Assembly (NCBI GenBank): GCA_965219345.1
Contig: OZ244732.1
Span: 128,001-192,000 of the forward strand
Direction of reading: 5' to 3'
Length of the DNA: 64,000 nt
Origin: Nitrosopumilus sp.
Lineage (GTDB): Archaea > Thermoproteota > Nitrososphaeria > Nitrososphaerales > Nitrosopumilaceae
Below, piece by piece: positions 1 to 22,520 of the stretch. The position numbers were made by a program, and so were the translations under genes. The notes beneath the pieces were generated by a model that saw nothing but the letters and a program-made list of their open reading frames with translations, made no database searches and was not told the DNA's origin. Each line of letters opens with the position of its first letter. Within the stretch, counting starts at the first letter, position 1.

Positions 1-1
1 A

Positions 2-712
2 GCTAATTCACTTGAAGAAAAAGAGAGAATTTTTGGGTGGAGAGGAAAAATCATTCAATCGTATTGTAAAAAATGTAGATATGTATCTCATTCACAAAAT
101 CCACATACTGAAAATGTAAATCCTATGGTTGATATTATTTTTAAAGGAATTAACCGAGATTATAAATTTACTAATGATTATATTTCAAAGCTTCCAAGAT
201 ATGATAAAAATGGAAAACTCTTAAGTCATAATATGAAAAATAAATTAGCAAAACAATATTTACTAAATAAAAACCATCTTTTTGTATCACATTTTTTAAA
301 ATTACTTGATGAATCAGAACCCTATATTGAAGAAGAAAAATTTTTAAAGTTATTTGAAATTTATAATTTTCATACTAAAAAACCAGAAAAAGAAAGTTTT
401 TTCAATTTTGTAATTTCAGAATCTAAAGAAATTAGTCTTAAACAAGAATTAAATCCAAAAAAACAAATTTTCGTAATTTTGAAAATTTACCAAACGATTA
501 CTGAAACATATGTAAAAATTCTATCTGAAAAATTAAAAAAATCACCTGCAATAATCATTAGTTTTGTAAGTGATATACATCAAGATTTTATTGAAAATAA
601 TGATCAAATTTGTATTTTTGATCGTGATATGATTCAATTCTTATTAGAATATAGAGATGATAGACTCAAATTATTTGATGTAGTATTTAATTCAGAAAAG
701 AATTCAACATAA
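2..712 (+). CDS. Hypothetical island protein, 5'-partial (frame open from window start; includes CxxC motif YCKKC)
   Basis: No stop codon in frame from position 2 to the track's ATG at 125; stop overlaps the start of the next ORF. Confidence 0.7.
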   Translation, partial: ANSLEEKERIFGWRGKIIQSYCKKCRYVSHSQNPHTENVNPMVDIIFKGINRDYKFTNDYISKLPRYDKNGKLLSHNMKNKLAKQYLLNKNHLFVSHFLKLLDESEPYIEEEKFLKLFEIYNFHTKKPEKESFFNFVISESKEISLKQELNPKKQIFVILKIYQTITETYVKILSEKLKKSPAIIISFVSDIHQDFIENNDQICIFDRDMIQFLLEYRDDRLKLFDVVFNSEKNST

Positions 713-3012
713 TGCCTCCTAATAAGAAATCTACCGCATACGACAAAATCAACATTGAAGAATTCACAAATGATTGGAATTCTGGAATGAGTTTAGTTGA
801 TCTAGCTAGAAAATACAACTTTTCCTATCCTGAAAAAGCAAAAAGAATTGGTCAAAAACTTGGTTTGAAAAAACAAAAAAATCTAACGTTTTTCGATAAA
901 TTTCTAAAAGATTCACGAAAAACTAATGAGCTAATAACAATGTATGCTGATGAATCTATAACTATTTCCAAAATTACTACTCACTTTGGGTTTACCGATA
1001 ATGGATATGTTTCTAGACTTGTTAAAAAAATTGGAATTACTCCACGAAGAGGTGGCCAAGGTAGTATAGAGAAATTTAAGGAATCTAAAAATGAATTTAT
1101 AGAAATGTGGAATGATAATGTTCTCAAAAAAATAATAGCAAAAAAATTTAATATTAGTTATCCAACTGTTAGTTTATGGAGAAAAAGACTCGGTTTAGAA
1201 CCTAGAAGTTTAGGGAGAATTAGGCCTGAATCATTATCAGAAAAAATCGAATTATTATTACTTGAAAATTTAGGCGCTTTAACAACAAAAGAAATAAAAA
1301 AAATATTGAATATTTCGACTGTACATCTTGCTAATTGTTTAAATCTCGAAAAAATTCAAAGACTATCTTTAACTATGCATGTAACTGGTAGGCTGTATCG
1401 CAAACCTAGTGATTATTTTGGTGATTATACTGGACAATCAATTGTGTATTTGCGTGGCATGAATGATAGTTTGATTTTAAAACTATCAAAAATTCTACAA
1501 ACTGGTCGTATGTTTAAAAATAATCTACTCAAGAAAGCAAATTATAATTTTATGATTTCTAGACTAACTGAATCTGAAAAAGATATTGAAAATCGATCAC
1601 AACAATTGTATGGTCTAATACATTTCAAAAATAACCAAAACAAACTTGAATCTATTGTAGAATCACAATTAAAAAAATATCGAATAATTACGAACACATC
1701 AGAATTAATTTCTAGAATAGAGTCAAATGATTCACTAATACCAAAGATCTTGAGTGAAAAGCCTAAATCAAAATTTTATGGAAGAAAATTTGAACCTAAA
1801 TTAGTTATAAAAGAACTAGATTCGTCATATCCTGATGACCAAAAAAGACTCGTTCAAGAAATATTTACCCCATTTAATTTCATTTGTAGAACATCAAATG
1901 ATGAATATTTTGACTTGGAAATAACTTCAGATGATAAATTTTTAATAAAATTAATACTGCATCAACAGCTTACTACCACTAGTCTAAAAATATTTCATAA
2001 TAAATTGCAAGGACAGAAGGGAATTATAATAAATTTTGAATCTATCTCTGAATCTGTTAAAAAACTAGAATATGAAAATATTAGCATTTTGGCAAATGCT
2101 GATTTATTATTATTATTAAACTCATTAGAATTTTTACCTGTAAGGGCAAAATCTTTTGCAAAAATTACTTTTGGAGAGGATAAGGAAAAAATTATTTTTT
2201 GTGAAAATATAGATTTTGAAACTAATATTGCTACAGTGAGTGATTCTGATCATAATACAAAAAAAATATTAATAAAATTTTTAAAACAAATTGAATTACC
2301 AGAAAATGTAGGTAATTCAGATTATTTTAATTTTATTGAAAAATTCAAAACAATATCTATTATTGAAAATATCTCTACTATGGACGAATGTATTGTGAAT
2401 GTTACAAGAGATATTCTAAATAGACATGGAGATATTCTGATTACTTCACAAGTTGATTCTTATATTACTAAAATTTCACTTCTTTACAATTTATTTGATG
2501 AAAAAATTGGTGATGATCATCATGTCACTAGTATTGGTATACTGCGAAATAAGCTAATTCAATGTAATTGTTTATCATGGGAATCTCAAGATTATATTGT
2601 TTTATGTAAACATTCTATTGCATTATTATTTCATTTATGGACAGGGGATATTAATAAATATGATAATGTTGTTGGGGGGGAAACCATTGAGAACTTTTTA
2701 GATTATGTTAATTTCTTAATTAATTATTCTATTAAGATAGAAGAATTTTGGTTTGAAAAAATAGATGGTAAAAAAATCAATCATCATTTAATTCATTATG
2801 CAATTTGTAATCTTATACATGAAAATTATAAGACAACATCTTTTTTCCTTGATTGCGATATTGCTGAAAAGATTGAATTAGAGAATTTAATGGCTGAATA
2901 CAAAAATGAAAAAATAAAATTATTTGAATCTGTAAGAAAACTATCTTCTGAACAAAAAACATTACTTTTGAATACGCTTTTTGCTCAGTTTAGAGATGCA
3001 TACAAAAATTAA
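712..3012 (+). CDS. Multidomain protein: N-terminal HTH repeats, degenerate restriction-endonuclease-like middle region, SWIM-type Zn finger
   Basis: HTH-like segments (SLVDLARKYNFS; KKIIAKKFNISYPTVSLWRKRLGL); SWIM-like CNCxxW...CKHSIAL. Confidence 0.6.
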   Translation: MPPNKKSTAYDKINIEEFTNDWNSGMSLVDLARKYNFSYPEKAKRIGQKLGLKKQKNLTFFDKFLKDSRKTNELITMYADESITISKITTHFGFTDNGYVSRLVKKIGITPRRGGQGSIEKFKESKNEFIEMWNDNVLKKIIAKKFNISYPTVSLWRKRLGLEPRSLGRIRPESLSEKIELLLLENLGALTTKEIKKILNISTVHLANCLNLEKIQRLSLTMHVTGRLYRKPSDYFGDYTGQSIVYLRGMNDSLILKLSKILQTGRMFKNNLLKKANYNFMISRLTESEKDIENRSQQLYGLIHFKNNQNKLESIVESQLKKYRIITNTSELISRIESNDSLIPKILSEKPKSKFYGRKFEPKLVIKELDSSYPDDQKRLVQEIFTPFNFICRTSNDEYFDLEITSDDKFLIKLILHQQLTTTSLKIFHNKLQGQKGIIINFESISESVKKLEYENISILANADLLLLLNSLEFLPVRAKSFAKITFGEDKEKIIFCENIDFETNIATVSDSDHNTKKILIKFLKQIELPENVGNSDYFNFIEKFKTISIIENISTMDECIVNVTRDILNRHGDILITSQVDSYITKISLLYNLFDEKIGDDHHVTSIGILRNKLIQCNCLSWESQDYIVLCKHSIALLFHLWTGDINKYDNVVGGETIENFLDYVNFLINYSIKIEEFWFEKIDGKKINHHLIHYAICNLIHENYKTTSFFLDCDIAEKIELENLMAEYKNEKIKLFESVRKLSSEQKTLLLNTLFAQFRDAYKN

Positions 3013-3051
3013 TTTCAAATAAAATACCAAATTTACCTAAAGGTTTTATTC

Positions 3052-5577
3052 ATGCAAATTAATATTCTCATACGTATGTTAATTGAAAAATATGGTTTAA
3101 AGGCAATTCCATTTCAATCTCAAGGCTCAGAATCTGGAAAATACCCTTTTGTTCCATCTGAATCATTTAATGAATTAGTATCCGAAATTGAAAAAATCCA
3201 AGAACAAAAAGATTCTGGTGCAATAATAGTTCAAGGGCCACAAGGGAGTGGAAAGACAGCTACTAGAAAAGGTCTTTTTGAGGCATTTTCATCAAAATCG
3301 GGGGTTGGCATCATTACTATACATCTATCTTCCCTTGATTTGAAAGATTTAGCATGGTCTATAATAGATGAGGCAAAAAAACAGAATTATATTGATAATG
3401 GCTTTCTTGAAAAAAACTCAGAAGGTGAAGAATTTAAAAATTTTACAAAACCTAAACTAGAACAAATAATTACTAAAGTGCTAGAACAAATTGTATCAAA
3501 AAATGAATTGGGAATTTTAATTATCGATGAATTTGATATTATTTCTCAGCCTACTTTTCATGATACAAATGATCAAACTATTTTTCTTCATGCTATTACA
3601 AATATTTTAAACTCTATTAATGAATCAAAAATAATTCAAGAAAAATCATTTTGTACTATACTTGCACAAACTGATAGAAGCTCTGAAGACTTCAGAAACT
3701 ATATTTCCGATAGACACAAACCTCTTTCAACTAGATTAAAGAGAAATATCAATATCAACTATAACTTTGATGTAACAAAAAAAATTATTCTAAAAAGATT
3801 AGAAACTGAACAGTTATCTGGATTTGAAAAACCTAATGGAAATGAATTATTCCCTCTAGATGAGGAAATTTTAAAATCCCTTTATGATAAAATTAATCAT
3901 TTCACACAAAGTAATTCAATGAAAGCATTCAGAGACATGGAACAAATCTTACACGATTCAATTGAAAAATCATTAGAAAATAATCTACCAAAAGTTGAAA
4001 TGAATATTATCCAAGAAATTTTTACTCGTATATCTCCTAAATTTGATTATAATCCTAAAGAAAATAGGAGGAAAATATCCATTGAAACATCTAATGAATT
4101 AAAGGGTGTAATGAAAGACCCAGATCAAAATAGGTCTAATTGTATATATTTGAATGGAATTAAAACTGCTATGGAATATTGGGAGGCAAGAGAATACTCG
4201 TCAGTCGAATCAAATCTTGCATCTTCAAGATATGAAAATGAAGAAATGGGCATTTTTATTAGCAGTATTAAGATAAACTTACGAACTACTGATAGATCTA
4301 AATACGCAAAAAATATTTTTTGGTACACTGTCTCAAAATCTGAAGATAAACCTCCATTAAATGATGGTGACTTTAAACAAATTAATTTATTTTTAGAAGA
4401 AAATAAATCTGAACAAATTGGTTGCCAATACTCTATTCTGACAATTTTTTCAGAAGAATTTGCTGGAAAATCAGAACAAGAATTACAAAGTGAATTAATT
4501 CCTACTGTTGATCGAATTTTTTACAGAGGAAATTCATTCAAACAAGCTATAGCAGGAATATATTTATCACAATCTGATGAAGAACGGGAAGAATTTAGAG
4601 ACGAATGGGATACTCACCTTCACAAATTTTGTGCTAATACTTTAGGTTCAACACTATTTGATCTTGGAGCAAAAATTGACAGTAGACATATATCATTAAT
4701 TCAATATTTGTATGCAAAAACGATTGTTAAACAAAAATTTAAGAAAGATGATTGGTTATTTTGGGGTAAAAAACTTTCTCCCGGAAAAATGATTAGAGAT
4801 GATGTATTTAAACAAATTAAACTTTTGGGATTTACCGATGATGAGTGTAACGCTTTTGTACCAAGAAATTTAAAATCTCTTAAATCTTTGATTGATTCAA
4901 AAGATGGACAAGATTCACTTTCAAACGATGAAATTGAAAATTATTTTGAAAATAATTATACGCTTAACGCAGCTAAATTATTGGGAATTTTGACTAAAGA
5001 AAATCGACTGTATGATATTACTTTACTAAAAGAAAGAATTTCTAATGAATTAATTGATGATATTGATAATGCATTACCCGAAATTGAAACCACTACTATG
5101 TCTGATAGTTTGAAAATGTTAAATCTCTTAAAAGAAACATTTGAAAAAATTGATGAAGAAGATGATTATATCAAAAAAGTTGTTTCGTTACAATTCATTC
5201 TGAAGCAATCACCTCTTTTATTGTCTGATATTGGATCTGCAAGTGGTGGTGAATCTGCAAGTGGTGGTGAATCTGCAAGTGGTGGTGAATCTGCAGGTGG
5301 TGGTGAATCTGCAGGTGGTGGTGAATCTGCAGGTGGTGGTGAATCTGCAGGTGGTGGTGAATCTGCAGGTGGTGGTGAATCTGCAGGAATAGAGATAACC
5401 AAATTCATGCTCATAGAGACTTGTAAAAATATTCTAGGCGGTGGGCAAAAATTAAGCCTCTCAACTCTAAAAAAAGAAATAGGTAAAAAACCTGGATTTG
5501 AAGATCAAAGCAAATGGGCTGGTGAGCTTGCAAAATTAATCCTAAATGACATTCTACTAATTACAATTGATGAGTGA
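3052..5577 (+). CDS. P-loop ATPase (DpdH-like position in a defence operon)
   Basis: Walker A GPQGSGKT, Walker B ILIIDEFD; first gene of a coupled ATPase-X-helicase-DUF1998-PLD operon. Confidence 0.75.
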   Translation: MQINILIRMLIEKYGLKAIPFQSQGSESGKYPFVPSESFNELVSEIEKIQEQKDSGAIIVQGPQGSGKTATRKGLFEAFSSKSGVGIITIHLSSLDLKDLAWSIIDEAKKQNYIDNGFLEKNSEGEEFKNFTKPKLEQIITKVLEQIVSKNELGILIIDEFDIISQPTFHDTNDQTIFLHAITNILNSINESKIIQEKSFCTILAQTDRSSEDFRNYISDRHKPLSTRLKRNININYNFDVTKKIILKRLETEQLSGFEKPNGNELFPLDEEILKSLYDKINHFTQSNSMKAFRDMEQILHDSIEKSLENNLPKVEMNIIQEIFTRISPKFDYNPKENRRKISIETSNELKGVMKDPDQNRSNCIYLNGIKTAMEYWEAREYSSVESNLASSRYENEEMGIFISSIKINLRTTDRSKYAKNIFWYTVSKSEDKPPLNDGDFKQINLFLEENKSEQIGCQYSILTIFSEEFAGKSEQELQSELIPTVDRIFYRGNSFKQAIAGIYLSQSDEEREEFRDEWDTHLHKFCANTLGSTLFDLGAKIDSRHISLIQYLYAKTIVKQKFKKDDWLFWGKKLSPGKMIRDDVFKQIKLLGFTDDECNAFVPRNLKSLKSLIDSKDGQDSLSNDEIENYFENNYTLNAAKLLGILTKENRLYDITLLKERISNELIDDIDNALPEIETTTMSDSLKMLNLLKETFEKIDEEDDYIKKVVSLQFILKQSPLLLSDIGSASGGESASGGESASGGESAGGGESAGGGESAGGGESAGGGESAGGGESAGIEITKFMLIETCKNILGGGQKLSLSTLKKEIGKKPGFEDQSKWAGELAKLILNDILLITIDE
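5235..5387 (+). repeat. 18-bp tandem repeat (atctgca[a/g]gtggtggtga, ~8.5 copies) encoding an SA[S/G]GGE linker
   Basis: Directly visible; protein reads SASGGE x3, SAGGGE x5, SAG. Confidence 0.95.
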
Positions 5578-6560
5578 TACAAATAAATCAAAATATAATC
5601 AAGGCACCAGCTGTAGATAACTTAAATGATTTGAAAGATATTATTAAAAGTCTTGAATATAATTCCATTCCTTACAGCTATATTGACAAACGACGTCTCG
5701 AAAATCTTTTAGAAAATAAAAAACTTTCAAAAGATAATTATGATATTATTTGTAATTGGAAAATTGAACAAGACATTCATGATAACAAAGGGGATTTACA
5801 ATCAATTGTCTCACTGATGAAATCTCTTGGAATAATTATAACTGAAAAAATACAGAGAGATAACTTGGAACAACCACTTGGCTTTGCTGGTCCCATGCTC
5901 AATTCATTTATTGCTAAATCTGTTGATGCTGTAAAATTAACTGAGATAGGCCAAGTTTTGTGTAATTTACTTGAAGAAACTAATACTGAATCTTTAATTG
6001 AATATGATAATCTTTTGTTTTGGAGATTCTTACACAGTAACATTACTCACAATTTTCAAAAATTAATTGAAGATAATGATTCATATAATAAAGGAGTTGA
6101 TGTTGTGTTACAAAAAATTGAAATGGATTCTAGGTCTGCAAATTATTTTTTGAAATGGACTAGTTATTTTGAATTGCTCGGAATTGGATCAAAACTTCTT
6201 ATCCAAAACAAAGTTGCGAAAAAAATAATTTTTTGTACTATTTTTGAATTAAATAAATTGGAATGTGGAATATATGGAATTCAGAAACTTTCAAATCATG
6301 TTTCAAAAGAACTTGATTTTTCAAATAATTTAATTAATTTCTTTTTGATTTTTGAAATCATCTTACGTCATATACAATTATCAAATGAACATGAAAAAGC
6401 ATTAGAGGGAACCACTTCATCTAGGGGTGAACGATCGTTGTCAAATTTTCCAAATGTAACTATGTTGAAAATCAATCACAAAATTAACTTCAATTCAATA
6501 ATGTCTCATGTTTCAAACTCTGAATTAGCCACAATATGGAATATAGGTACAAAACCATGA
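5574..6560 (+). CDS. Hypothetical defence-operon protein (DpdI-like position), possible winged-helix elements
   Basis: 328 aa; GTGA and ATGA overlaps with the flanking ATPase and helicase. Confidence 0.6.
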   Translation: MIQINQNIIKAPAVDNLNDLKDIIKSLEYNSIPYSYIDKRRLENLLENKKLSKDNYDIICNWKIEQDIHDNKGDLQSIVSLMKSLGIIITEKIQRDNLEQPLGFAGPMLNSFIAKSVDAVKLTEIGQVLCNLLEETNTESLIEYDNLLFWRFLHSNITHNFQKLIEDNDSYNKGVDVVLQKIEMDSRSANYFLKWTSYFELLGIGSKLLIQNKVAKKIIFCTIFELNKLECGIYGIQKLSNHVSKELDFSNNLINFFLIFEIILRHIQLSNEHEKALEGTTSSRGERSLSNFPNVTMLKINHKINFNSIMSHVSNSELATIWNIGTKP

Positions 6561-9247
6561 GTAATGGTGGAAATGTCGATATTGTAAGGGAAATTATTTA
6601 TGAACTAGAGAAAGATCTTATCAAAAAAAAGAAATTTTTAGATGATGATGGAAAGCCTATTTTTATCACTAATGTTGAAATTCAAAATCATAGTGAATTA
6701 CCCAATAATGATATAATTAATGCAATTAAAAAATTGAAAGATGATGAATTTATTGTTTTTGATAATCAACTCATTTCTCTTGAAGAGAGTGTTGAATTTT
6801 TAATTCGTTCTAGAATATATCACACCATTTGGTGTATTTATAAAACAGAAAATCGGCCAGCAATGGAACGTAATGTGGATGATTTTCAATACATCCGACA
6901 TATTAAACGAACACCATCCCAAAACCACAATTTAGATGAACTCTTTAATGATCCTGATGTTAAAAATATTCTTCGATGGGGAAAATCAGATCATCAATTA
7001 ATTGTTGAAATTATTAAACATCTAAAAAACACAACTAATTACAAAAAAATGAGTCAATTTCAGCTTAATTCTACTACAACTATCATCAAGAACCTTGATA
7101 CTCATAATGTTTCAAAAGGTCTTGCAATTGTAGCTGGTACAGGATCTGGAAAATCTTTTGCGTATCAATTCCCTTTGTTGCTTTGGATTTTACATAAAAA
7201 GATTAACAAGTATAATGATCTTATAAAATGCAATATCAAACCATCTCAACTATATGTTAATTGTTCAGCAATTCTTATTTTTCCAAGAAATTCCTTAGCA
7301 AGAGATCAAAATGATTCAATTAAAATCTTGATCGAAAAAATTAATGATTTTATTTTGAAAAATGTTCATGATAAAAATAAAAAAGAATTTCTTTTTATAA
7401 AAAATCCCATTACTGATTTTGGAAGTCGTGCTGGTAAATTAGATGAAGTTTATGGCACAGACACTAGATTGGGATATCCTGATCTGATTATCACTACTCC
7501 CTCCTCACTAAATCATAGATTGCTTAATCCTGAATGTCATCCTGTATTTCGAAATGGTGTAGATATAATATTATATGATGAAATTCACATATGGGAGGGA
7601 ATTAGTGGAGCTGAAATTGCTTCGTTAAACTCCCGACTGCAAAATTTGTTTAAAATAGATCCTCCAAAATATCCTCTTTTCATTGGTATATCTGCCACAA
7701 TTGATAAACCTGATCTTCATTGTCAAAAATTGTTTTGTCTATTGAAAAATGATCAAAAACCTTCAATAATAACTCAAAGTAATTTAGATGATACCAAAAT
7801 ATTTTCAATTGAACATCATTTAATTCTAAAACCTGCAAGTGGTCGTTTTGTTAATGGTGTTGCCATGGAATCTACATCTTGCTTAATACATAATAGGAGA
7901 GATGGTTTATCACAATATCATGATGATGTAAATAATGGAAGATTTGTTAATGCAGAAAATAAACCTAAAAGCATCACTTTTCTTGATTCATTAAATGGAT
8001 CAGCAAAATATACTTCTGATTTTAATGATTATGAAAATTTTAAATGGGCCCACGGAAATACTCCTCCTGCTCAAACTACTAGAGTAAAACGTACGTATTA
8101 TTTTTACAATCGACCCAAACAAGGACAAAGCGGAATACCTCATACATTTTCATGTGACAATTGTATAGATAGATCTAATCCTGAACTCTTTGATTGTGAA
8201 TTTTATAAAAATGGCCAATGTTGGTATTATTCTTTAGATGACGCTGGTCAATTCAATAATATGAGATTCGGAAACTGGCATCCGTTTGTACGGGGGTTGG
8301 TAGACATCCCAATTGACAATATACGATCAATAAGAGTATCTTCTCAAGAAAAAGCTCCAAAACCAACTGAAGACAAATACAATTATTTTAAGATGAATCA
8401 ACAAGTGAAGGTTTGGACTGCAGGTGAGAATCAATCTCACACATTTCGTTCTCAAATTGATCATGTTATTACAACGCCTACTCTAGAAGTTGGAGTTGAT
8501 TTTAACAATATTAAAGAAGTAATTCAAGTTGGCTCTATACGTTCACCTTCTACTTACAAACAAAAAGTTGGAAGAGGTGCCCGAGAAGGAAATCTCAAAG
8601 AAGGATTATTTGCAATGAGCATAATTGATGAATCTCCTTTATCCTATTATCATTTTAAACATTTTAAAAGGTTGATCACTTCTACTCTAGATCCGTTAAA
8701 ACTTGAAATTACTAATCCTAATGTGGTTCTCGCAAATGCATTTTTATCTATTTTTGATTTTCTTGCATTCAATGGAATTAATTTATTTAGAATAAAACTT
8801 GGACGGGGTAAATATTTGACAGACACTGAAATAGACACTAATTATAAGAATGCATTAACGTTGATCGACAACGACAAAACTAAAAAGTTTATTAAAAGTT
8901 TCCTAGATCAATTGGGTTTTCCTAATTCAGCTGCAAAAACCAATGATATAATTAATGATGTCAAAAATTTCTTGACAGAACTTTGTAAAAAAATTACTAT
9001 TAAAATACACGATAAAAACGAGACTCATACTCTGCATGAGTGGTTTATACGTTCTACTGAAGATCATACCACCTACGAAAATTTGATACACGAAGAAAAA
9101 TATGATGTTATTAAATCAACTGGAGATGAAACAGAAAAAATCCTTAATGCGATAGCGGATTTAAAAGATGTTTACACCAAATTCTTTCCTGGAGATGACT
9201 CAATTAGTAAAAAATTAGATTTGTTACGAGGTGAATTAATTGGATAA
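6557..9247 (+). CDS. DEAD/DEAH-box SF2 helicase (DrmA / DpdJ N-terminal / MrfA-like)
   Basis: Motifs I AGTGSGKS, Ia FPRNSLARDQ, Ib ITTPSSL, II DEIH, III SAT, V TPTLEVGVDF, VI QKVGRGAR; start placed at the ATGA overlap at 6557. Confidence 0.9.
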   Translation: MSNGGNVDIVREIIYELEKDLIKKKKFLDDDGKPIFITNVEIQNHSELPNNDIINAIKKLKDDEFIVFDNQLISLEESVEFLIRSRIYHTIWCIYKTENRPAMERNVDDFQYIRHIKRTPSQNHNLDELFNDPDVKNILRWGKSDHQLIVEIIKHLKNTTNYKKMSQFQLNSTTTIIKNLDTHNVSKGLAIVAGTGSGKSFAYQFPLLLWILHKKINKYNDLIKCNIKPSQLYVNCSAILIFPRNSLARDQNDSIKILIEKINDFILKNVHDKNKKEFLFIKNPITDFGSRAGKLDEVYGTDTRLGYPDLIITTPSSLNHRLLNPECHPVFRNGVDIILYDEIHIWEGISGAEIASLNSRLQNLFKIDPPKYPLFIGISATIDKPDLHCQKLFCLLKNDQKPSIITQSNLDDTKIFSIEHHLILKPASGRFVNGVAMESTSCLIHNRRDGLSQYHDDVNNGRFVNAENKPKSITFLDSLNGSAKYTSDFNDYENFKWAHGNTPPAQTTRVKRTYYFYNRPKQGQSGIPHTFSCDNCIDRSNPELFDCEFYKNGQCWYYSLDDAGQFNNMRFGNWHPFVRGLVDIPIDNIRSIRVSSQEKAPKPTEDKYNYFKMNQQVKVWTAGENQSHTFRSQIDHVITTPTLEVGVDFNNIKEVIQVGSIRSPSTYKQKVGRGAREGNLKEGLFAMSIIDESPLSYYHFKHFKRLITSTLDPLKLEITNPNVVLANAFLSIFDFLAFNGINLFRIKLGRGKYLTDTEIDTNYKNALTLIDNDKTKKFIKSFLDQLGFPNSAAKTNDIINDVKNFLTELCKKITIKIHDKNETHTLHEWFIRSTEDHTTYENLIHEEKYDVIKSTGDETEKILNAIADLKDVYTKFFPGDDSISKKLDLLRGELIG

Positions 9248-11477
9248 CCTAGATGAAATTAAAGAAATGATTTCCATGAAAAAAAATGAATTAAATGATA
9301 TTGATAAAGAATTTGAACTTACTGGACCATTGATCACTTTAATGAATGCATTAAAAAAAATTAAAGAGATTAAATCGGTTAAAAGTAATACTGGTATTGA
9401 TTTAATTAATTTAGAAGTATACTTGTCTAAATTAACTGCGAATCATCAATCAGAACATCCTAAATATGACTATACTTTGTTTCCTCTACTTACTGGTTTA
9501 CCTAGACGTCCATATTCTAAAACTACTGATTATTTTGGAGGGGGGATAGGATCATTGATCCAAATTGAAAAAAAAGGCACTGGTCTGCCTCAAACTACAA
9601 TACCTGCAAACGATGTTTTTATTTCCATGTATCCTGGTTCTATTAGTTATAGATTTGGAGCATATAATCAAATTCGAATACCTTGTGGCCAATATTATGA
9701 GGATTTTGTTAGTCATTTACAAGGATTGCATAAATTATCCAAATCTCCGATTTCCACATTTGAAGACAATGATGTTTATGAGATAGAAAAAATCATTGGA
9801 ATTGCATTAGATATTATTAGGAATAGAAATCATGGCAACATCCCAATTTGTCCTAGGTGTTTGTCAATCAGTGTTTTTAGTGGACCACAAAGAGAACAAT
9901 GTGATCACATTAGAGATAAAACCGAATCTGTAGTAATGGTAAAAAATTTTCAACATCAACCAATTTTGAAAACAAAAGAAAATATTGATGAACGAAAAAT
10001 TCTTGAGTCAAAAAAGTTTACTTTTCCTCTTAATGAAATATTTGATAAGGTAGAATTTTTGGGAAACGCCCAAATTGTAACTGTTGCTACTGGATTTTCT
10101 AGACAAGCTTCATGGGGACAAGGTGCAAATGCTGGACATAATTCTGTTCATGTAAAATATAATCCATATGTTGGATATAAAATGGATACTAATGGAGTAA
10201 TATTCAAAATCAAAGAAATTCCTGAAAATTTTATTGATCAAATATTTGATGAATATTTTCTTGTTCGGGATATTTTAATTGATATTTTTGCAGAAAAAAT
10301 TGAAAAAATTATCCATGACAATGATAGATCAATTTTTGAATTAGAACTATGGTTATCTGGAATTATTAAAACACTCAATTTGGATTCTATTGATGATTCT
10401 TTTAATGTTAATGATGTTTTACAGGCTCTTCTTGGTTCAAATTTCAGGGAGAATTTTAAAAATAATATTGTTAGAGAGATAAGCTACTATTCACACATTC
10501 CAAATAATATTGGGCCTGATATAATTGATATTTTCAGTCAGGAGATAAACTCAGTATCCATTTCAATAGATGACTTAAAATTAAAAATTAAAGCTTTACT
10601 TAAAATTTCATTATCCTATTTAGCATATATGAGTGCATTAATAACATCTGGTTCGATGAACAAGGATGTAGATTTTATTTACCCTCAAGGGGCTAAAAAC
10701 GATGTTGTAATTTTTGACAGTGTTTCAAACGGTAATGGTGCTTCAAAATTAATTAATGATTATCTTATTGGAGAAGAAACGTCAGTTTCTCAAGAAAAAG
10801 GTTTACGTTCAAAATATTTCCAAGAGACTCTTTTTGAATTATTACTACCTTGCTCACAGGGTATTGCTGATAGAATTTTTTTCCAGAATTTAGATGATAA
10901 TTTTTCAAATTTCACTAGAAATGATTTGATTACTTATAGGTTAAATGAATTAAAAGAACAAAATAATTCTGCAACAGAGGAATTCAATCAAATAAAAAAT
11001 TCAAAAATTGAAAATATGTTTCCGATATCTATTGGAAAAAGACCTTTGCAAAAGCCTGATGGTGCCAATGTCGAAAATAAAAAAATCCAAGAAATTGCAC
11101 ATATCTGTATACACGGCTGTCCTGAATGTTTGCTTTTGAATAGTTATTCTGGACCTTCTATTCCTAGGTTGGAGCGATTTTATGTAAGCAAATATCTACT
11201 AGATCTTTATTTCAAATTTGTAACAGAGAAAATCCGTATAAGATCAAATGAAAGTATTTCGAATATTGAGAAAATTCTTAATCAATATGGTGTGATAATT
11301 ATTTCTCAAAAAATCACTGGAACTAACTGTGATTTTAGTGATTTGCTAACAAAAATTAATTCCTTAATTGGGGAAAAATTCAACAGTAAATTGGTAAAGT
11401 TTTCAGGAATTTGGTTTGATTGTCCAATTACAAAACCTTCTGATTTTAACATCTCTATTTTGGTAAGTGTGATATAA
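9240..11477 (+). CDS. DUF1998/MZB-type Zn-binding helicase partner (DrmB / DpdJ C-terminal-like)
   Basis: IFDSVSNGNGAS plus CIHGCPECL near the C-terminus, extra CPRC; TTG start after GAGGTGA ribosome-binding site, overlapping the helicase stop. Confidence 0.7.
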   Translation: MDNLDEIKEMISMKKNELNDIDKEFELTGPLITLMNALKKIKEIKSVKSNTGIDLINLEVYLSKLTANHQSEHPKYDYTLFPLLTGLPRRPYSKTTDYFGGGIGSLIQIEKKGTGLPQTTIPANDVFISMYPGSISYRFGAYNQIRIPCGQYYEDFVSHLQGLHKLSKSPISTFEDNDVYEIEKIIGIALDIIRNRNHGNIPICPRCLSISVFSGPQREQCDHIRDKTESVVMVKNFQHQPILKTKENIDERKILESKKFTFPLNEIFDKVEFLGNAQIVTVATGFSRQASWGQGANAGHNSVHVKYNPYVGYKMDTNGVIFKIKEIPENFIDQIFDEYFLVRDILIDIFAEKIEKIIHDNDRSIFELELWLSGIIKTLNLDSIDDSFNVNDVLQALLGSNFRENFKNNIVREISYYSHIPNNIGPDIIDIFSQEINSVSISIDDLKLKIKALLKISLSYLAYMSALITSGSMNKDVDFIYPQGAKNDVVIFDSVSNGNGASKLINDYLIGEETSVSQEKGLRSKYFQETLFELLLPCSQGIADRIFFQNLDDNFSNFTRNDLITYRLNELKEQNNSATEEFNQIKNSKIENMFPISIGKRPLQKPDGANVENKKIQEIAHICIHGCPECLLLNSYSGPSIPRLERFYVSKYLLDLYFKFVTEKIRIRSNESISNIEKILNQYGVIIISQKITGTNCDFSDLLTKINSLIGEKFNSKLVKFSGIWFDCPITKPSDFNISILVSVI

Positions 11478-12025
11478 TGACTCATGTTGATGAAGATAAC
11501 TATTCTATTGTTGAACTTGATATTTTGTCTTTAGAATTAATAAAATCTACCAATAACAATAATGTTGAAGTGATTATTATTTCTCCTTGGATTAAAGATT
11601 ATGCCATACCTATCACTTGGCCTTCTTTCACAAGTAATTTTATCGATATCACTGACATGCAAAGAACAAGTGATATTCTGAGATTATTATTACAAAATAA
11701 TGTATCTGTGACTATTGTTACTAGCTCTCCTGCAAAATTAAAAAGTGACAATTGGAACCAAAAACATATTCTAGATGCTACAGGATTTTGTGAACAAATT
11801 AAAAATGCTGGAGGAAAAATTGTTTACAATAAAAAAAATCATGGTAAAGTAACTTTAACTTCAGAATGCAGTTTGACTGGTTCTGGTAATTTTACGAATA
11901 AGGGTAGAGATCCAAAATTACAAGATAATGCTGGAGATCTAATTAATAAAAGTGTGGATGAGCGAAGTTATATCGCAAAACTTGCATGGGCAAATAAAAT
12001 TATCGATGAAGGACAATCAGAATAA
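11477..12025 (+). CDS. Single-domain phospholipase D-like nuclease (DpdK/DrmC-like)
   Basis: IISPWIKD and HGK...GSGNFT motifs. Confidence 0.8.
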   Translation: MTHVDEDNYSIVELDILSLELIKSTNNNNVEVIIISPWIKDYAIPITWPSFTSNFIDITDMQRTSDILRLLLQNNVSVTIVTSSPAKLKSDNWNQKHILDATGFCEQIKNAGGKIVYNKKNHGKVTLTSECSLTGSGNFTNKGRDPKLQDNAGDLINKSVDERSYIAKLAWANKIIDEGQSE

Positions 12026-12044: not shown

Positions 12045-13304
12045 TTATTTTCCAAAATAATACAAACCCATTCTTCTATCTATAGAATTACACCAAGTCG
12101 CTAATCCTAATAATAATGATACATCTTCTTTATCTTTCATAGAATACTTTTTTGATCTTTTCAAATCATTTACAATGTCATCAAAACTTTGGGGTGTATC
12201 AGATAACAGTTTTAACATGTAATTGTATTCTGGAATGTTTTCTTTTAATTTTTTATTCAACTTTGATTTACCTGATCTTTTTTCCAATGACTCTAAGAAA
12301 TCTTTTCCTTCATTACTAAGATAAACAACACCCTTACGTTTAGTTGTAAATTTTAACAATTCTCCTAATTTTGTATAGCTACCATTCTCTGTTTCATATC
12401 TTGAATGTAACAAATTTTTTAATTGAATTCCATCTTTAATTGATTCCAAAAATTTGGGAAATTTAGTAACTGAGATCTGGGGTGGTTTAAAATTACCTGT
12501 AACTGGACTTGTTTTTTTATAATCTACATTTTGTTTATTGCCTTTTTCTGATGAACTTAATGCTTTATTTGAAATAATAAAAGTAAAACTTCCATATCCT
12601 CGATATGATAAATCCACTCTTAATGGTAAATCATCACTCAAACTTAGTTTAACTTCTCCACATTGTGCTACTATCTCAGATACTGTTGTTAAATAATCTA
12701 AAATTGTCCAACTTTTTACATCTCTTCTAGGAATTTTATTTTTAAGTGAATCAAATATTTGCCCTGAAAGATCAATGGTTTTACGATATGATAATCCCCC
12801 CTCATCTGAACCTACAATAAATTTTCCATCTTCCATACCAAAAAAGATCTCACGTGACACTGTTGATGCTTTAACTATCTCCAAAAATTCACTGGATGGA
12901 ATTGTTATTTGTGCATCATAATTCAAACTTTGAGGCTCTGGTAAGTTGAATTGTTCCTCCTCAAGCCATTCTAATTCATATCTAGTCTTTCCACTATTTA
13001 CAAAATTTAGTGCAATGTTTCTTTTTCTAATATCCAAATATAGTGTCTTATCTTTAGTAATTTTTGAAATGACTTGTCTTAATTTACCAATGTCTGCTTC
13101 ACTTGTAAATTTCTCAGAATTCCAACTAAACCCATCAAAAAATGAAGGTTGTAATTTTATGTCAATATAGCAAAAATCATGAGGATCAATACTTCTAATC
13201 CTTATCCCATTAGAACTTACATCAAATCTAGCTACGTCTGTAAATTTTGTAATTCCACGAAAGATAGCTTTGAATAATGATAAATCATCAATTTTTAATT
13301 CCAT
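12045..13304 (-). CDS. PCNA sliding-clamp paralog fused to a C-terminal winged-helix-like domain
   Basis: First ~245 aa follow the PCNA pattern end to end (FKAIFRGITKFTDVARFDVSSNGIRIRSIDP...YLTTVSEIVAQCGEVKLSLSDDLPLRVDLSYRGYGSFTFII), then a linker and ~150-aa extension. Confidence 0.8.
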   Translation of the reverse strand: MELKIDDLSLFKAIFRGITKFTDVARFDVSSNGIRIRSIDPHDFCYIDIKLQPSFFDGFSWNSEKFTSEADIGKLRQVISKITKDKTLYLDIRKRNIALNFVNSGKTRYELEWLEEEQFNLPEPQSLNYDAQITIPSSEFLEIVKASTVSREIFFGMEDGKFIVGSDEGGLSYRKTIDLSGQIFDSLKNKIPRRDVKSWTILDYLTTVSEIVAQCGEVKLSLSDDLPLRVDLSYRGYGSFTFIISNKALSSSEKGNKQNVDYKKTSPVTGNFKPPQISVTKFPKFLESIKDGIQLKNLLHSRYETENGSYTKLGELLKFTTKRKGVVYLSNEGKDFLESLEKRSGKSKLNKKLKENIPEYNYMLKLLSDTPQSFDDIVNDLKRSKKYSMKDKEDVSLLLGLATWCNSIDRRMGLYYFGK

Positions 13305-14354
13305 TTACTTTCTACCAAACAATACATTTGAAATACTATTGTATTTTCTCTTTAATTTAGCATATCTCCATAAATAATCTAGAGATGATCTCTTGTAAAT
13401 CTCGTTTAGATATTTTTCATATTCTTCTTGCCCTTGTTTGATTAGTTTTTTTGCTAACTTTCTTTCATTTTTCATGACATGATCATTGTGAATTGCTCTC
13501 GATTTCCAATCATCCCATAGTGAATCTTGATTTACTCTACAAACTGGGCAATCACATTCTTGTAATTTTTTCAAATCTTTTCTTTTTAATAATGCACCGC
13601 CTCCAAACTTGGCTGTGTTATTGCCTACATACCTCTCAGCCGTGCCGGGTAATACAATCTGACCAAATGCAGCCTTTCTTCTATATCCTGATGAATCTGT
13701 ACTGTCTATTCCTAGATAGAATCCAAAATGTAACGAAAGTGGTGATGAACCTAATCCCATAATGTGGACATTGTAATCTGTATTTTGTTTTACACTTTCT
13801 ACAGTATACGATAACATATCAATTAGATTTTTGTTTGGTTGTCTATCTCCAAAAAATCCATTATAGTTTGTAAATTCAGGATTAACAATACTTCCAACTG
13901 CTACATAATCTGAATTCCCATACTTTTGAATCCATTTCAAATTTTTCATTAATGATTTTTTATTCCATGCATGAATTGAAGGAACTAGTTTTTCATCCAA
14001 ATTTGTAGATGATTGCCAATACTGAATATTTTTTGCAGTCTCTTTCCATCTTTTTTGCATTGTTGAGGGAGACATTCCATTTTTAAATGGATAATCAAAT
14101 GGAATTGTTTTATCAGGTTCTAAAGTTTCTTGAATATCTATAATTTTTTCTAAATCTAATTCTATATCTTGCATATTTGCTGTAAATGCTCCATTATCTA
14201 GAAACAATTTCCCAGGATTGTATGGAAGTTTTGGTTCTTCTTTTTTGTAATAGTTGATAGCAGAATCCATAATGTGATCTTTTCTACGATCTGTTTTTAC
14301 AGGAGCAGTTGGTTGTTCGCCCATCCATAACAATACATCTTCATTTTGAGACAT
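13305..14354 (-). CDS. tRNA-guanine-transglycosylase-fold protein, short (DpdA/TGT-like)
   Basis: FLDNGAF, PFDYP, VAVGS, HIMGLG, DSTDSS (catalytic Asp), Zn site CDCPVC...H; no C-terminal PUA domain. Confidence 0.85.
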   Translation of the reverse strand: MSQNEDVLLWMGEQPTAPVKTDRRKDHIMDSAINYYKKEEPKLPYNPGKLFLDNGAFTANMQDIELDLEKIIDIQETLEPDKTIPFDYPFKNGMSPSTMQKRWKETAKNIQYWQSSTNLDEKLVPSIHAWNKKSLMKNLKWIQKYGNSDYVAVGSIVNPEFTNYNGFFGDRQPNKNLIDMLSYTVESVKQNTDYNVHIMGLGSSPLSLHFGFYLGIDSTDSSGYRRKAAFGQIVLPGTAERYVGNNTAKFGGGALLKRKDLKKLQECDCPVCRVNQDSLWDDWKSRAIHNDHVMKNERKLAKKLIKQGQEEYEKYLNEIYKRSSLDYLWRYAKLKRKYNSISNVLFGRK

Positions 14355-15805: not shown

Positions 15806-15921
15806 AAAATTAACATAATATCTTCTCATATATGACAATTTCATAAAATATTATATTTCATCTAGGAAGGAAAATCTCATTTATTATAAAAAGTTACATA
15901 TTAGTAGTTTCATTATTTTTT

Positions 15922-16809: not shown

Positions 16810-16814
16810 CTAAC

Positions 16815-21904: not shown

Positions 21905-21940
21905 CTAATTTCTAAAATACTAGGAATTTATTATTATGTT

Positions 21941-22495: not shown

Positions 22496-22520
22496 AGTTC
22501 ATGTAACATAGTTACATGAT

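Follow-up and report, generated by a model that had tools for sequence, protein, structure and literature searches.

A DpdA-like, probably DNA-acting transglycosylase encoded beside a PCNA-like protein in a low-GC island of Nitrosopumilus

A convergent gene cluster in a low-GC island

The window (the whole stretch of Nitrosopumilus sp. DNA analysed, 64,000 nucleotides) opens within a low-GC island of approximately 26 kb that extends from position -2000 to position 24000 of the window (contig positions 126001-152000). The GC content of the island, taken in 2-kb steps, is 0.257-0.336 compared with a mean of 0.360 (sd 0.054) for the genome as a whole, in agreement with the initial annotation, which had placed the gene for a short TGT-fold enzyme in an island. 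That gene and a PCNA-like gene form a pair on the minus strand, the start of the latter abutting the stop of the former, and an operon on the plus strand (1..12025) converges on the pair (Table 1). No integrase was recognised in the scanned ORFs and the TGT-like family is nearly absent from viral contigs, leaving the idea that the island is a provirus unsupported.

Table 1. Genes of the convergent cluster, in window coordinates.
Feature	Position	Strand	Basis or remark
First gene of the convergent operon, 249 aa, no family match	1..712	+	starts 37 bases left of the window
766-aa protein	712..3012	+	HTH matches, sub-threshold only
P-loop (AAA_22/STAND-like) ATPase, 841 aa	3052..5577	+	Pfam AAA_22 7.6e-7
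328-aa protein, no family match, conserved in the system	5574..6560	+	in 12/80 metagenome loci
DpdJ-like DEAD/DEAH helicase, 903 aa	6536..9247	+	PADLOC DpdJ 1.1e-29, DrmA 3.3e-11
745-aa protein, possible MZB/DUF1998 zinc domain	9240..11477	+	leads only
DpdK-like phospholipase-D-family nuclease, 182 aa	11477..12025	+	PADLOC DpdK 1.9e-8
Putative PCNA-fold/winged-helix fusion, 419 aa	12045..13304	-	PCNA_N; AF2 model; Foldseek
Putative TGT-fold DpdA-like transglycosylase, 349 aa	13305..14354	-	ATG-started ORF; PF01702; AF2 model

Several members of the operon recur in relatives. The products of the first two genes are encoded syntenically in the related genome G151 (63% and 57% identity, respectively), and the ATPase is conserved in loci L003 and L005 as well as in 14 of 80 metagenome loci. 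In locus L005 all seven genes lie in a single co-directional operon. A beta-CASP/MBL gene located upstream on the minus strand (14426-15844) was considered as a further component and was left out because the syntenic locus L003 lacks an equivalent.

The helicase and nuclease assignments were examined against curated models. With the NCBIfam models the two proteins score far below the cut-offs: DpdJ (NF041067) gives 1.3e-27 and 96 bits where the cut-off is 800, and DpdK (NF041068) gives 6.6e-8 and 32 bits where it is 100. The L005 homologs of both proteins are closer to their families: the helicase matches DpdJ at 4.6e-43, and the nuclease matches PLDc_2 (2.7e-9), DpdK (2.4e-10) and DrmC (2.3e-5). 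For the 745-aa protein, the L005 homolog gave a Pfam MZB match of 7.6e-4, under the cut-off, and MZB is found in 35% of the members of its best atlas cluster (0.93). At locus L126 its homolog is fused to the helicase in one ORF. If it does bear an MZB domain, the 745-aa protein may supply the second part of a DpdJ/DrmB-like unit divided between two genes. Among the 30 metagenome loci possessing at least 6 kb of downstream sequence, the helicase was present in 18; in the 21 of these that also have the PCNA-like gene, the helicase was present in 16 and HerA/NurA in four. No relative of DpdB or DpdC was detected by PADLOC among the 24 island ORFs, nor among the neighbours of relatives.

Two genes for 7-deazaguanine precursor synthesis, encoding QueE (TIGR03963, 1.3e-34) and QueD (TIGR03367, 3.9e-22), lie at the island edge and are likewise syntenic in G151. 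Of 41 genomes belonging to the same taxonomic family, just two, G000 and G024, encode a homolog sharing more than 50% identity with the island QueE; the other QueE-matching genomes hold only a type of approximately 30% identity, situated beside QueC. The island QueE and QueD are extra, non-housekeeping copies. Furthermore, QueC and/or QueT adjoin members of the TGT-like family in loci L004 and L007 and in five metagenome loci (QueC in four, QueT in two, one locus having both).

The TGT-fold protein and its relatives

The reading frame of the TGT-like gene is open for 355 aa only, so a longer N-terminus is impossible. Its product matches the Pfam TGT family (PF01702) with an E-value of 4.4e-16 and 59.3 bits (cut-off 26.3) over profile positions 109-353 of 357. 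The initial annotation had reported that the TGT hallmarks are kept within 349 aa, and all of them could be read in the translation: LFLDNGAF (50-57), PFDYPF (85-90), DSTDSSG (217-223), CDCPVC (267-272) and H289, which together supply the three active-site aspartates and the CxCxxC...H zinc site. Residues D53, D87, H128, D220, C267, C269, C272 and H289 are invariant in a family alignment of 18 sequences, and D53, D87, D220 and the four zinc ligands are retained in 21 of 21 family rows. D53, D220 and D87 are the counterparts of the catalytic D95 and D256 and the base-binding D130, respectively, of Salmonella Montevideo DpdA, as given in the available text of PMC10164549.

The AF2 model (pLDDT 92.5) predicts a TGT-type TIM barrel with a zinc subdomain. 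Structural comparison returned VIA Z scores of 29.1 for arcTGT, 25.1 for bTGT, 20.9 for DpdA (7ui4, 274 residues aligned) and 19.1 for Cap10; the arcTGT match (1IQ8) extends over 312 residues with an rmsd of 3.2 A and 19% identity. The model is accordingly placed nearer to arcTGT than to DpdA, with the caveat that AF2 may favour structures in its own training set. At the level of sequence, arcTGT 1iq8 was the sole PDB profile match (1.8e-5), and a single-sequence phmmer search of the PDB returned nothing relevant.

The protein is not the housekeeping enzyme of its genome. A separate arcTGT of 503 aa (266 bits to PF01702) is encoded 690 kb away, so that the gene is not the sole TGT, a point which the initial annotation had left to be checked. 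Long canonical TGTs similarly coexist with members of the TGT-like family in eight of ten other genomes. Its catalytic and zinc residues are those of arcTGT, and the archaeal preQ0 would be a plausible substrate. The architecture differs: 59 residues follow the zinc histidine (family median 59), compared with about 220 in arcTGT (median 220.5 in eight housekeeping enzymes), and the first catalytic aspartate stands at position 53 (family median 52) rather than at a median of 87.5, the N-terminus being some 35 residues shorter. The C-terminal tRNA-binding domains (the C1/C2/PUA part) are absent. The missing PUA domain and truncated N-terminus described previously are therefore both real. Against TIGR00432 (TgtA) the protein scores 40.7 bits, where the equivalog cut-off is 350, and its pI is 9.16 compared with 6.36 for the catalytic part of the arcTGT from the same genome. 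The gene is an accessory paralog of the housekeeping arcTGT; it is patchily distributed, whereas the true arcTGT is retained.

Individual residues were assessed as potential markers of kinship. Arg286 is common to the family (21/21), to a more distant tier (35/35), to the NCBI-annotated DpdA clade (3/3) and to STSV1 ORF18, and its position is occupied by Leu or Ile in arcTGT (8/8) and in bTGT. His128 aligns with His181 of S. Montevideo DpdA (PMC10164549, available text), and arcTGT has Gln here in seven of eight sequences. As a DpdA marker, however, His128 was rejected, because the cyanobacterial annotated DpdA clade also carries Gln (3/3). The replacement of Ser by Asn in the DSGGF motif, from which, together with the island location, a separate clade had been proposed at the outset, is genuine in this protein and is no family trait. 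Sixteen of the 21 family rows have N here, four have S and one has C; among 80 metagenome relatives, N occurs in 44, S in 28 and C in two, with six unread. Since it varies within the family, it defines nothing and was rejected as a clade marker.

Curated DpdA models did not recognise the protein. PADLOC, including its DpdA models (PDLC02807-9), gave no family at E <= 0.1, and NCBIfam returned TgtA, tgt_general, Tgt and ArcS only, all far under their cut-offs, and no DpdA. Among 24 scanned relatives, 16 do match PADLOC DpdA (PDLC02807; E 5.5e-18 to 2.9e-4), and relatives are labelled 'queuine/archaeosine tRNA-ribosyltransferase' in their sources. In the best tree, the family (branch value 97) is nested in a clade of 62 rows (also 97) that contains the PADLOC-DpdA-matching relatives, the NCBI-annotated DpdA and the STSV1 viral homolog, and that stands apart from the arcTGT clade (100). 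A topology uniting the family with arcTGT in one clade has an lnL lower by 18.6 and is nevertheless not rejected by the AU test (p 0.29), and descent from arcTGT is compatible with this result. The tree was built by a quick search with one bTGT outgroup and one annotated DpdA, and the group submitted to the AU test was named after the tree had been viewed.

The family is conserved and archaeal, with a patchy distribution: a scan of 151 genomes from the same taxonomic family located it in two, and none of nine other genomes from the genus contained it. It is essentially absent from viral contigs, which yielded one partial match at 49% identity and 24 other loci at 22-28%. Matches in 50,697 phage and virus records were confined to five Sulfolobus virus records at 27% identity.

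The PCNA-like partner

The fused PCNA-like partner, which the initial annotation had missed, is the most distinctive feature of the locus. Its AF2 model comprises a PCNA fold (residues 1-247), a disordered linker (248-276) and a basic winged-helix/helical domain (277-419). Pfam PCNA_N matches with 1.5e-5 and 25.2 bits (cut-off 20.3), and Foldseek aligned the model to Sulfolobus solfataricus PCNA (2ix2_B) with an E-value of 6.8e-18, a TMt of 0.87 and 21% identity; the two-domain PCNA fold is thereby predicted to be present. Two ordinary PCNAs, with frames of 257 and 262 aa, are encoded elsewhere in the genome. The best score of the partner against the NCBIfam sliding-clamp models is 89 bits where the cut-off is 284, and its length of 419 aa, with an added domain, departs from the approximately 250 aa of a replicative clamp, which forms a ring trimer on DNA; by these measures it classes as a non-replicative PCNA paralog. 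Its C-terminal part resembles AAA_assoc_C/DUF7226 (atlas 0.93), which we record as a lead only.

In 41 of 66 informative metagenome loci, and in four of ten genome loci, the gene immediately downstream of the TGT-like one is PCNA-like; no such gene was detected in the remaining 25 metagenome loci. The pairing is conserved across phyla. A C-terminal 'IS..LF' tail occurs in 37 of 43 PCNA-partnered members of the TGT-like family and in 0 of 26 others. Considered as a clamp-binding motif, this tail did not hold up: of four independent contrasts about one was in the same direction (sign test p 1), and since the association fails these contrasts we treat it as a lead and not as evidence. Nor, by our reading of the sequence, does it fit the canonical PIP spacing.

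A proposed archaeal Dpd-type system

We propose that the locus encodes an archaeal modification-restriction system of the Dpd type, marking DNA with 7-deazaguanine and employing a PCNA-like clamp in place of the ParB-like DpdB, and we assign this reading a probability of roughly 0.6. The TGT-fold protein would be a DpdA-like and probably DNA-acting paralog, the proposed DNA 7-deazaguanine insertase. The DpdA-like character suggested by the initial annotation gains from the DpdJ- and DpdK-like neighbours, the clamp paralog and the spare QueE and QueD; it does not extend to the curated DpdA models, and the predicted fold is nearer arcTGT.

In the proposed mechanism, the island QueD and QueE would act with the host QueC to enlarge the pool of 7-deazaguanine precursor, probably preQ0 and possibly 7-carboxy-7-deazaguanine. 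The TGT-fold enzyme, with D220 as nucleophile and D53 as acid/base, would exchange chosen guanines in the double-stranded DNA of the cell itself for the 7-deazaguanine. The enzyme itself is devoid of nucleic-acid-binding domains and would be brought to DNA by the co-translated PCNA-like/winged-helix partner. In bacteria DpdA requires DpdB, for which a dimer model encloses a 20-A tunnel (PMC10164549, available text), and the archaeal partner, a flexible-linker fusion, is proposed by analogy as a stand-in for this ring-forming ParB-like ATPase. The convergent operon, with its P-loop ATPase, DpdJ-like helicase, MZB-like protein and DpdK-like PLD nuclease, would then attack incoming DNA lacking the mark.

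An unlikely alternative, although the strongest of those weighed, is that the TGT-fold enzyme on its PCNA-like clamp serves as an effector or sensor on invading viral DNA and not as a marker of self, excising or exchanging bases such as 7-deazaguanines before the helicase and nuclease degrade the molecule. Family members do stand beside varied effector sets (DpdJ/K-type, HerA-NurA, a PglZ-like protein and IetA), archaeal viruses carry 7-deazaguanine marks (PMC10516641, available text), and glycosylases directed against 7-deazaguanine-modified phage DNA are a known class of defence. The available text of the report on those glycosylases does not, however, describe them as TGT-fold (bioRxiv 10.1101/2025.10.29.685425). 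Moreover, the full transglycosylase residue set is invariant, including the substrate-base Asp87, and dedicated precursor genes adjoin the system (QueE/QueD here, QueC/QueT elsewhere); these count against base removal because they are needed for inserting a base and not for removing one.

It is improbable that the protein is a second RNA-modifying transglycosylase, inserting preQ0 elsewhere in tRNA or in a different RNA, with its place in the island incidental. The resemblance to arcTGT, both as the closest solved structure and as the only PDB profile match, points in this direction, as do the unrejected arcTGT-derived origin and the names given to relatives in their sources. Such an enzyme would have to act without the C-terminal tRNA-binding part of approximately 200 residues found in all eight arcTGTs compared, in a family of very restricted occurrence among related genomes (2/151) that keep arcTGT alongside. 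The translationally adjacent DNA-clamp paralog, paired with it across phyla, and the linkage to helicase and PLD nuclease genes also argue against an RNA substrate.

Least probable of all is a Cap10-like enzyme acting on a 7-deazaguanine attached to a protein, for example the PCNA-like partner, as in the 'deazaguanylation' of type IV CBASS. Cap10 likewise has a TGT fold and works alongside a QueC-like enzyme (bioRxiv 10.1101/2025.04.06.647259, available text), QueC adjoins some family members, a tightly coupled protein partner is present and the model has a VIA Z of 19.1 to Cap10 (9ntn_B). Cap10, whose partners are a CD-NTase and Cap9, is described in the same text as lacking the zinc site and having a remodelled nucleic-acid surface, whereas the zinc ligands are invariant here. 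The protein is not matched by the PADLOC 'TGT' models of Cap10 type, PADLOC recognised neither a CD-NTase nor any further CBASS component in the island ORFs, and the QueC proteins beside relatives score as ordinary QueC (208-228 bits).

Returning to the Dpd-type reading, 7-deazaguanine in DNA has been described from bacteria (Dpd), phages and archaeal viruses (DpdA1-4). In the literature searched, to which subscription-only papers and bioRxiv supplements did not belong, we found no description of a cellular archaeal 7-deazaguanine DNA system and no publication on a Dpd defence system in Nitrosopumilus; no publication among the matches listed treats a PCNA-like protein together with a tRNA-guanine transglycosylase, and 'PCNA' is absent from the DpdA literature consulted for comparison. 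If the reading is correct, a PCNA paralog would here fill the place of the DNA-encircling helper that DpdA requires for reasons so far unexplained, and the helper's role in loading or scanning on duplex DNA would become directly testable in a simpler two-protein system. It would also follow that archaea already producing preQ0 for the archaeosine of their tRNA have, more than once, co-opted a stripped TGT core for marking their own DNA, and that environmental Nitrosopumilus DNA may bear a modification affecting sequencing and virus-host studies. More tentatively, and at somewhat less than even odds, we suggest that 7-deazaguanine is written into the chromosomes of marine ammonia-oxidising archaea, and of many further archaeal lineages, by their own DpdA-like enzymes, each tethered to a PCNA clamp that is dedicated to this task and non-replicative. 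The clamp would then be a novel answer to the difficulty for which bacteria use the ParB-like clamp DpdB. Such a system would be the first Dpd-type restriction-modification system known from cellular archaea, and its sliding clamp the first to be devoted to epigenetic marking of DNA in defence.

On the restriction side, the combination of a helicase with an MZB/DUF1998-like protein and a PLD nuclease recalls DISARM (DrmA helicase, DrmB DUF1998 and DrmC PLD), to which DrmA and DrmC matches exist but are weaker, the Dpd models outscoring the Drm models. DISARM further differs in its methyltransferase, absent here, where the modification module would be the TGT-like/PCNA-like pair. With the viral DpdA homologs STSV1 ORF18 and STSV2 (Hutinet 2019, PMC6884629; 2023, PMC10516641, available text) the protein shares the same large tree clade and a minimal TGT core from archaeal mobile DNA. 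STSV-type viruses encode DpdA homologs and the DNA of STSV-2 carries dCDG (PMC10516641, available text). The STSV1 protein, in contrast, is of 266 aa with T, Y, P and V at the zinc-ligand positions of the alignment, and the viral enzymes are virus-encoded and serve counter-defence.

The bacterial Dpd system of Salmonella Montevideo (dpdA-K; PMC10164549, available text) offers the closest set of parallels. Both have a TGT-fold enzyme without tRNA-binding domains, bearing two catalytic aspartates, a base-binding aspartate and a zinc site; both lie in a low-GC island and are linked to a DpdJ-like helicase, a DpdK-like PLD protein and deazaguanine precursor genes; and both would employ an obligatory insertase partner, the two partners being non-homologous and the clamp role of the archaeal one drawn by analogy. 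They differ in that the archaeal enzyme matches no curated DpdA model and reaches a Z of only 20.9 to 7UI4, no equivalents of DpdD-I were recognised, and the DpdJ-like unit is apparently split into the helicase and the 745-aa protein. A PCNA-fold/winged-helix fusion occupies the partner position in place of the ParB-like ATPase DpdB, DpdC being absent too, and the host is an archaeon already making preQ0 for archaeosine.

Gene, fold and relatives of the TGT-like enzyme

The translation of the 349-aa TGT-like gene contains the hallmarks named in the initial annotation, namely LFLDNGAF (residues 50-57), PFDYPF (85-90), DSTDSSG (217-223), CDCPVC (267-272) and His289. The frame is open over just 355 codons, hence a misassigned start codon does not explain the short N-terminus. 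Pfam TGT (PF01702) matched with E 4.4e-16 (59.3 bits, cut-off 26.3) but only through profile positions 109-353 of 357, while PHROGs returned phrog_887, 'queuine tRNA-ribosyltransferase' (9.2e-14). The NCBIfam equivalog for arcTGT, the housekeeping archaeosine TGT, scored 40.7 bits against a cut-off of 350, with TGT and ArcS models weaker still. In a PADLOC search no model matched, those for Cap10-type 'TGT' and for DpdA, the insertase of the bacterial 7-deazaguanine DNA modification-restriction system (Dpd), included.

An AlphaFold2 model computed from an alignment of 51 sequences was confident (mean pLDDT 92.5, pTM 0.91). Comparison by Foldseek and VIA-align revealed resemblance to every TGT-family structure: arcTGT 1iq8 was nearest (Z 29.1, 312 residues aligned, 19% identity), followed by bacterial TGT 3unt (Z 25.1), QTRT2 (Z 23.4), DpdA 7ui4 (Z 20.9, 274 residues aligned, 19% identity) and Cap10 9ntn_B (Z 19.1), with the next unrelated TIM barrel at Z 13.6. 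The proximity to arcTGT may reflect AlphaFold leaning to a structure from its training set.

In an alignment of 76 TGT-family proteins, including eight housekeeping arcTGTs, the family (the enzyme and its close archaeal relatives) has its first catalytic Asp at a median of residue 52, and the enzyme itself at 53, compared with 87.5 in the arcTGTs. A median of 59 residues follows the zinc His in the family, as in the enzyme, compared with 220.5. Thus, the truncated N-terminus and the absence of C-terminal tRNA-binding domains reported initially are real. The S-to-N change, offered there as the mark of a separate clade, does not hold as such, varying inside the family (of 21 rows, 16 have N, four have S and one has C); all three residues also occur among 80 metagenome relatives.

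A word-indexed search recovered 164 proteins at E <= 1e-3. The 120 matches listed span 294-382 aa and 44-89% identity, and derive from Nitrosopumilaceae, Nitrosocaldaceae, Conexivisphaerales, Bathyarchaeia, Verstraetearchaeota, Freyarchaeum and one WOR-3 bacterium. An exhaustive representative search yielded 332 proteins at E <= 1e-3, 158 at <= 1e-10 and 14 at <= 1e-30; outside the tight family, a further tier is made up of proteins approximately 25-33% identical. When 24 proteins from this search (three close family members, the rest tier) were scanned with PADLOC, 16 matched DpdA PDLC02807 (E 5.5e-18 to 2.9e-4), two matched Cap10-type TGT models alone and six had no match. The sole matches among 50,697 phage and virus records were five Sulfolobus virus records (STSV1, STSV2, STSV4; 27% identity), and IMG/VR held one partial family copy at 49% identity beside 24 loci at 22-28%. 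With both collections nearly empty of it, we consider the family cellular, not viral.

A quick IQ-TREE phylogeny (LG+C20, SH-aLRT support) was constructed from 76 rows: 21 family members, 35 tier proteins, the eight arcTGTs, one bacterial Tgt (Collinsella) as outgroup, one NCBI-annotated DpdA (Picosynechococcus plasmid), haloarchaeal plasmid TGT-like proteins, STSV1 ORF18 and other paralogs. The arcTGTs formed a clade (support 100), as did the family with row P0130 (97); the latter is enclosed in a 62-row clade (97) that also takes in the tier, the annotated DpdA and STSV1 ORF18. The best tree separates the family from arcTGT, but this placement is not secure: a tree holding the two together, a grouping chosen after the tree was seen, was 18.6 lnL worse and not rejected (p-AU 0.29).

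D53, D87 and D220 are kept in all rows, and the zinc ligands likewise with few exceptions. Arg286 is present in all 21 family members, all 35 tier proteins, the DpdA clade (3/3), STSV1, Aulosira and one Bathyarchaeia paralog; this position is Leu or Ile in bTGT and all eight arcTGTs. By position, His128 is the counterpart of His181 in S. Montevideo DpdA (PMC10164549), and 7/8 arcTGTs have Gln instead. It was dropped as a deciding residue because the cyanobacterial DpdA clade also has Gln.

The Bathyarchaeia genome of locus L004 contains at least five TGT-family genes (loci L035, L036, L040, L043), comprising two of approximately 360 aa, one of 313 aa grouping with STSV1 ORF18, a 560-aa gene grouping with the annotated DpdA, and the family member. 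A Halobaculum plasmid (L021; NZ_CP119991.1 183934-204716) encodes folE-queE-queD, a 968-aa TGT fusion, a 344-aa TGT-like gene and a BREX-type ATPase, and tblastn with a tier protein matched TGT-like genes on several other haloarchaeal plasmids.

A second PF01702 match (266 bits; OZ244732.1 829454-830422) was located in the window's genome (1.91 Mb, 99.5% complete), within a 503-aa protein possessing a DSGGYQ motif and a long C-terminal part. The separate housekeeping TGT sought since the initial annotation is thus present, and the TGT-like protein is not the genome's sole TGT. QueC was also detected (163 bits), and no DUF5591/ArcS-type domain was found in this genome. Ten other genomes with a family member were searched as well. 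A canonical long TGT turned up in eight of them (211-287 bits, in frames of 441-569 aa); a Bathyarchaeia MAG encodes a pair of 360-aa TGTs (142 and 133 bits), and a Promethearchaeota MAG yielded none. The short family occurs in only 2/151 genomes of the same taxonomic family, the window's own included, and in none of nine other genomes of the genus, which identifies a rare accessory gene; the only match besides the window's own is a distant one (143 bits) that contains a stop codon.

The PCNA-like partner and the island

Features of the island on contig OZ244732.1
Feature	Position	Strand	Length (aa)	Remarks
QueE, radical-SAM	contig 126850-127527			directly left of operon, outside window; TIGR03963 1.3e-34
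QueD	contig 127534-127884			directly left of operon, outside window; TIGR03367 3.9e-22
Operon gene 1	starts 37 bases left of window	+	249	
Operon gene 2		+	766	
Operon gene 3		+	841	P-loop ATPase
Operon gene 4		+	328	
Operon gene 5, helicase		+	903	PADLOC DpdJ 1.1e-29; NCBIfam DpdJ 1.3e-27, 96 bits (cut-off 800)
Operon gene 6		+	745	leads to MZB/DUF1998 zinc domain
Operon gene 7, PLD protein		+	182	PADLOC DpdK 1.9e-8; NCBIfam DpdK 6.6e-8, 32 bits (cut-off 100)
PCNA-like	window 12045..13304	-	419	start abuts TGT-like stop
TGT-like	window 13305..14354	-	349	ATG start

Residues 1-247 of the PCNA-like protein have a PCNA fold (Pfam PCNA_N 1.5e-5; Foldseek to S. solfataricus PCNA, E 6.8e-18, TMt 0.87). 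The predicted model continues with a disordered linker (248-276) and a tail domain of winged-helix-like and helical character; this tail domain is basic (pI 9.5), the PCNA part acidic (pI 5.3). The genome encodes two ordinary PCNAs besides. The fusion family has 63 members of 333-450 aa, and the longest contigs of 10 of its entries equal in size those listed for TGT-like matches. A conserved C-terminal tail of the TGT-like protein, present in 37/43 PCNA-partnered members versus 0/26 others, was given no weight as a clamp-binding peptide since it represents just four independent contrasts.

The island location was borne out by a GC content of 0.257-0.336 over contig positions 126001-152000 (window -2000 to 24000), against a genome mean of 0.360 (sd 0.054); LeuRS (window 24310) and AlaRS (27161) follow. 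An operon of seven overlapping genes converges on the TGT-like/PCNA-like pair. In locus L126 (7074-11490) the DpdJ-like helicase and the 745-aa protein are fused in one ORF of at least 1472 aa, like the bacterial DpdJ model of 1487 positions, which suggests that a split DpdJ is encoded by the two genes of the window. The island QueE and QueD are extra copies: another QueE-type gene (30-36% identical) stands beside the genome's QueC, and there is a second PTPS match. Among 41 same-family genomes, only this one and one other (G024) have an island-QueE homolog above 50% identity, the other 23 matching genomes having the ~30% type only. A tRNA-Glu lies 4.5 kb to the left of the island QueE/QueD pair.

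The complete layout recurs in a related Nitrosopumilus genome (L003, L051), with identities of 87% (TGT-like), 79% (PCNA-like), 79% (QueE), 85% (QueD), 63% (249-aa protein), 57% (766-aa protein) and 45-61% (other operon genes). A Thaumarchaeota MAG (L005) has seven genes in a single co-directional operon: TGT-like, PCNA-like, ATPase, 340-aa protein, helicase (DpdJ 4.6e-43), 729-aa protein and PLD (DpdK 2.4e-10). QueT and QueC adjoin the pair in L004, and a Freyarchaeota locus (L007) reads giant P-loop protein, NurA, HerA, TGT-like, PCNA-like, nucleoside deoxyribosyltransferase, QueC.

Metagenome neighbourhoods were tallied for the best 80 of 156 relatives. Of the 66 loci that extend at least 400 bases past the TGT-like gene, 41 have the PCNA-like gene directly downstream on the same strand. 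In 14/80 loci (e.g. L103, L113, L129) there is a DUF5591 (ArcS-type domain) neighbour, which accompanies the PCNA-like gene in two of them (L099, L101) and replaces it in the rest. These DUF5591-paired members, with L006, L008 and L009, form a sister subgroup of the family in which the DUF5591 protein is small and HerA often alongside. Downstream sequence extends 6 kb or more in 30 loci, and among these the DpdJ-like helicase is present in 18 and the 745-aa protein in 17; in the 21 of these with a PCNA-like gene, 16 have the helicase, four HerA/NurA and one neither.

Other features of the window were noted. Within the island, 14426-17845 is defence-like, encoding a beta-CASP/RNase J-like MBL protein (472 aa; no counterpart in syntenic L003), a TPR protein, a small Abi_2/PDC-M34B-like protein and a PIN-domain protein. 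At 21140-22964 (+), a CARF/Csa3-like protein (HFX_2341_N 8.6e-34, PADLOC CARF3 1.3e-76) precedes two further proteins, one of 184 aa and unknown type, the other of 147 aa and matching a Holliday-junction-resolvase-like endonuclease; the three may constitute a module for sensing cyclic oligonucleotides that lacks a visible CRISPR locus. An Rfam tRNA at 55137-55234 (+; 98 bases, 40.5 bits), absent from ARAGORN output, may be an intron-containing archaeal tRNA. A giant ORF (57983-64000, -; at least 2005 aa) runs off the window in DNA of GC 0.55-0.56, within a genome of GC 0.36; this stretch, in which no rRNA or other Rfam match was found, reaches at least contig position 196000.

Proposed function and comparison with Dpd

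According to PMC10164549, bacterial DpdA inserts preQ0 into DNA only with DpdB, a ParB-like ATPase modelled as a dimer around a 20-A tunnel; DpdC converts the inserted base and DpdD-K restrict. The island follows the same logic with one substitution, a PCNA-like clamp paralog as partner. The transglycosylase core is intact and free of nucleic-acid-binding appendages. It is co-translated with a DNA-clamp paralog bearing a basic winged-helix domain, and the pair adjoins precursor genes and faces a DpdJ/DpdK-like helicase-nuclease set. On this likeness we propose, as the most likely function, that the PCNA-like protein would carry the TGT-like enzyme onto duplex DNA, that the enzyme would mark self DNA with a 7-deazaguanine, and that unmarked DNA would be restricted by the helicase-nuclease set. 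QueD and QueE without QueC in the island fit either preQ0 (via host QueC) or 7-carboxy-7-deazaguanine, the latter reported in STSV-2 DNA (PMC10516641). The DUF5591-partnered subfamily may proceed to an archaeosine-like base.

The enzyme could instead be a DNA-directed effector that removes viral modified bases; the adjacent precursor genes speak against this, and we regard it as unlikely. A second RNA-modifying TGT is less probable again, given that the protein lacks the tRNA domains, is patchily distributed and has a DNA-clamp partner. A protein-directed enzyme like Cap10 has the slimmest chance, as the zinc site invariant in the family is missing in Cap10 (bioRxiv 10.1101/2025.04.06.647259).

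The proposed self-marking with restriction of unmarked DNA does not make the island a member of Dpd. No curated DpdA profile matches the enzyme and its partner is not a DpdB, and for these reasons we do not count it as one; no DpdB or DpdC was recognised among 24 island ORFs, and the DpdJ and DpdK matches fall far under curated cut-offs. The closeness of the fold to arcTGT also speaks against simple DpdA membership. The AU test leaves an arcTGT-derived origin of the family possible. The known DpdA subfamilies, as listed in PMC10516641, are bDpdA and viral DpdA1-4. The DpdA literature searched makes no mention of PCNA, and the literature searched (bioRxiv supplements and subscription journals lay outside its scope) contains no description of the TGT-like/PCNA-like pairing. 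By analogy, the island would work like bacterial Dpd, yet as a variant of that system.
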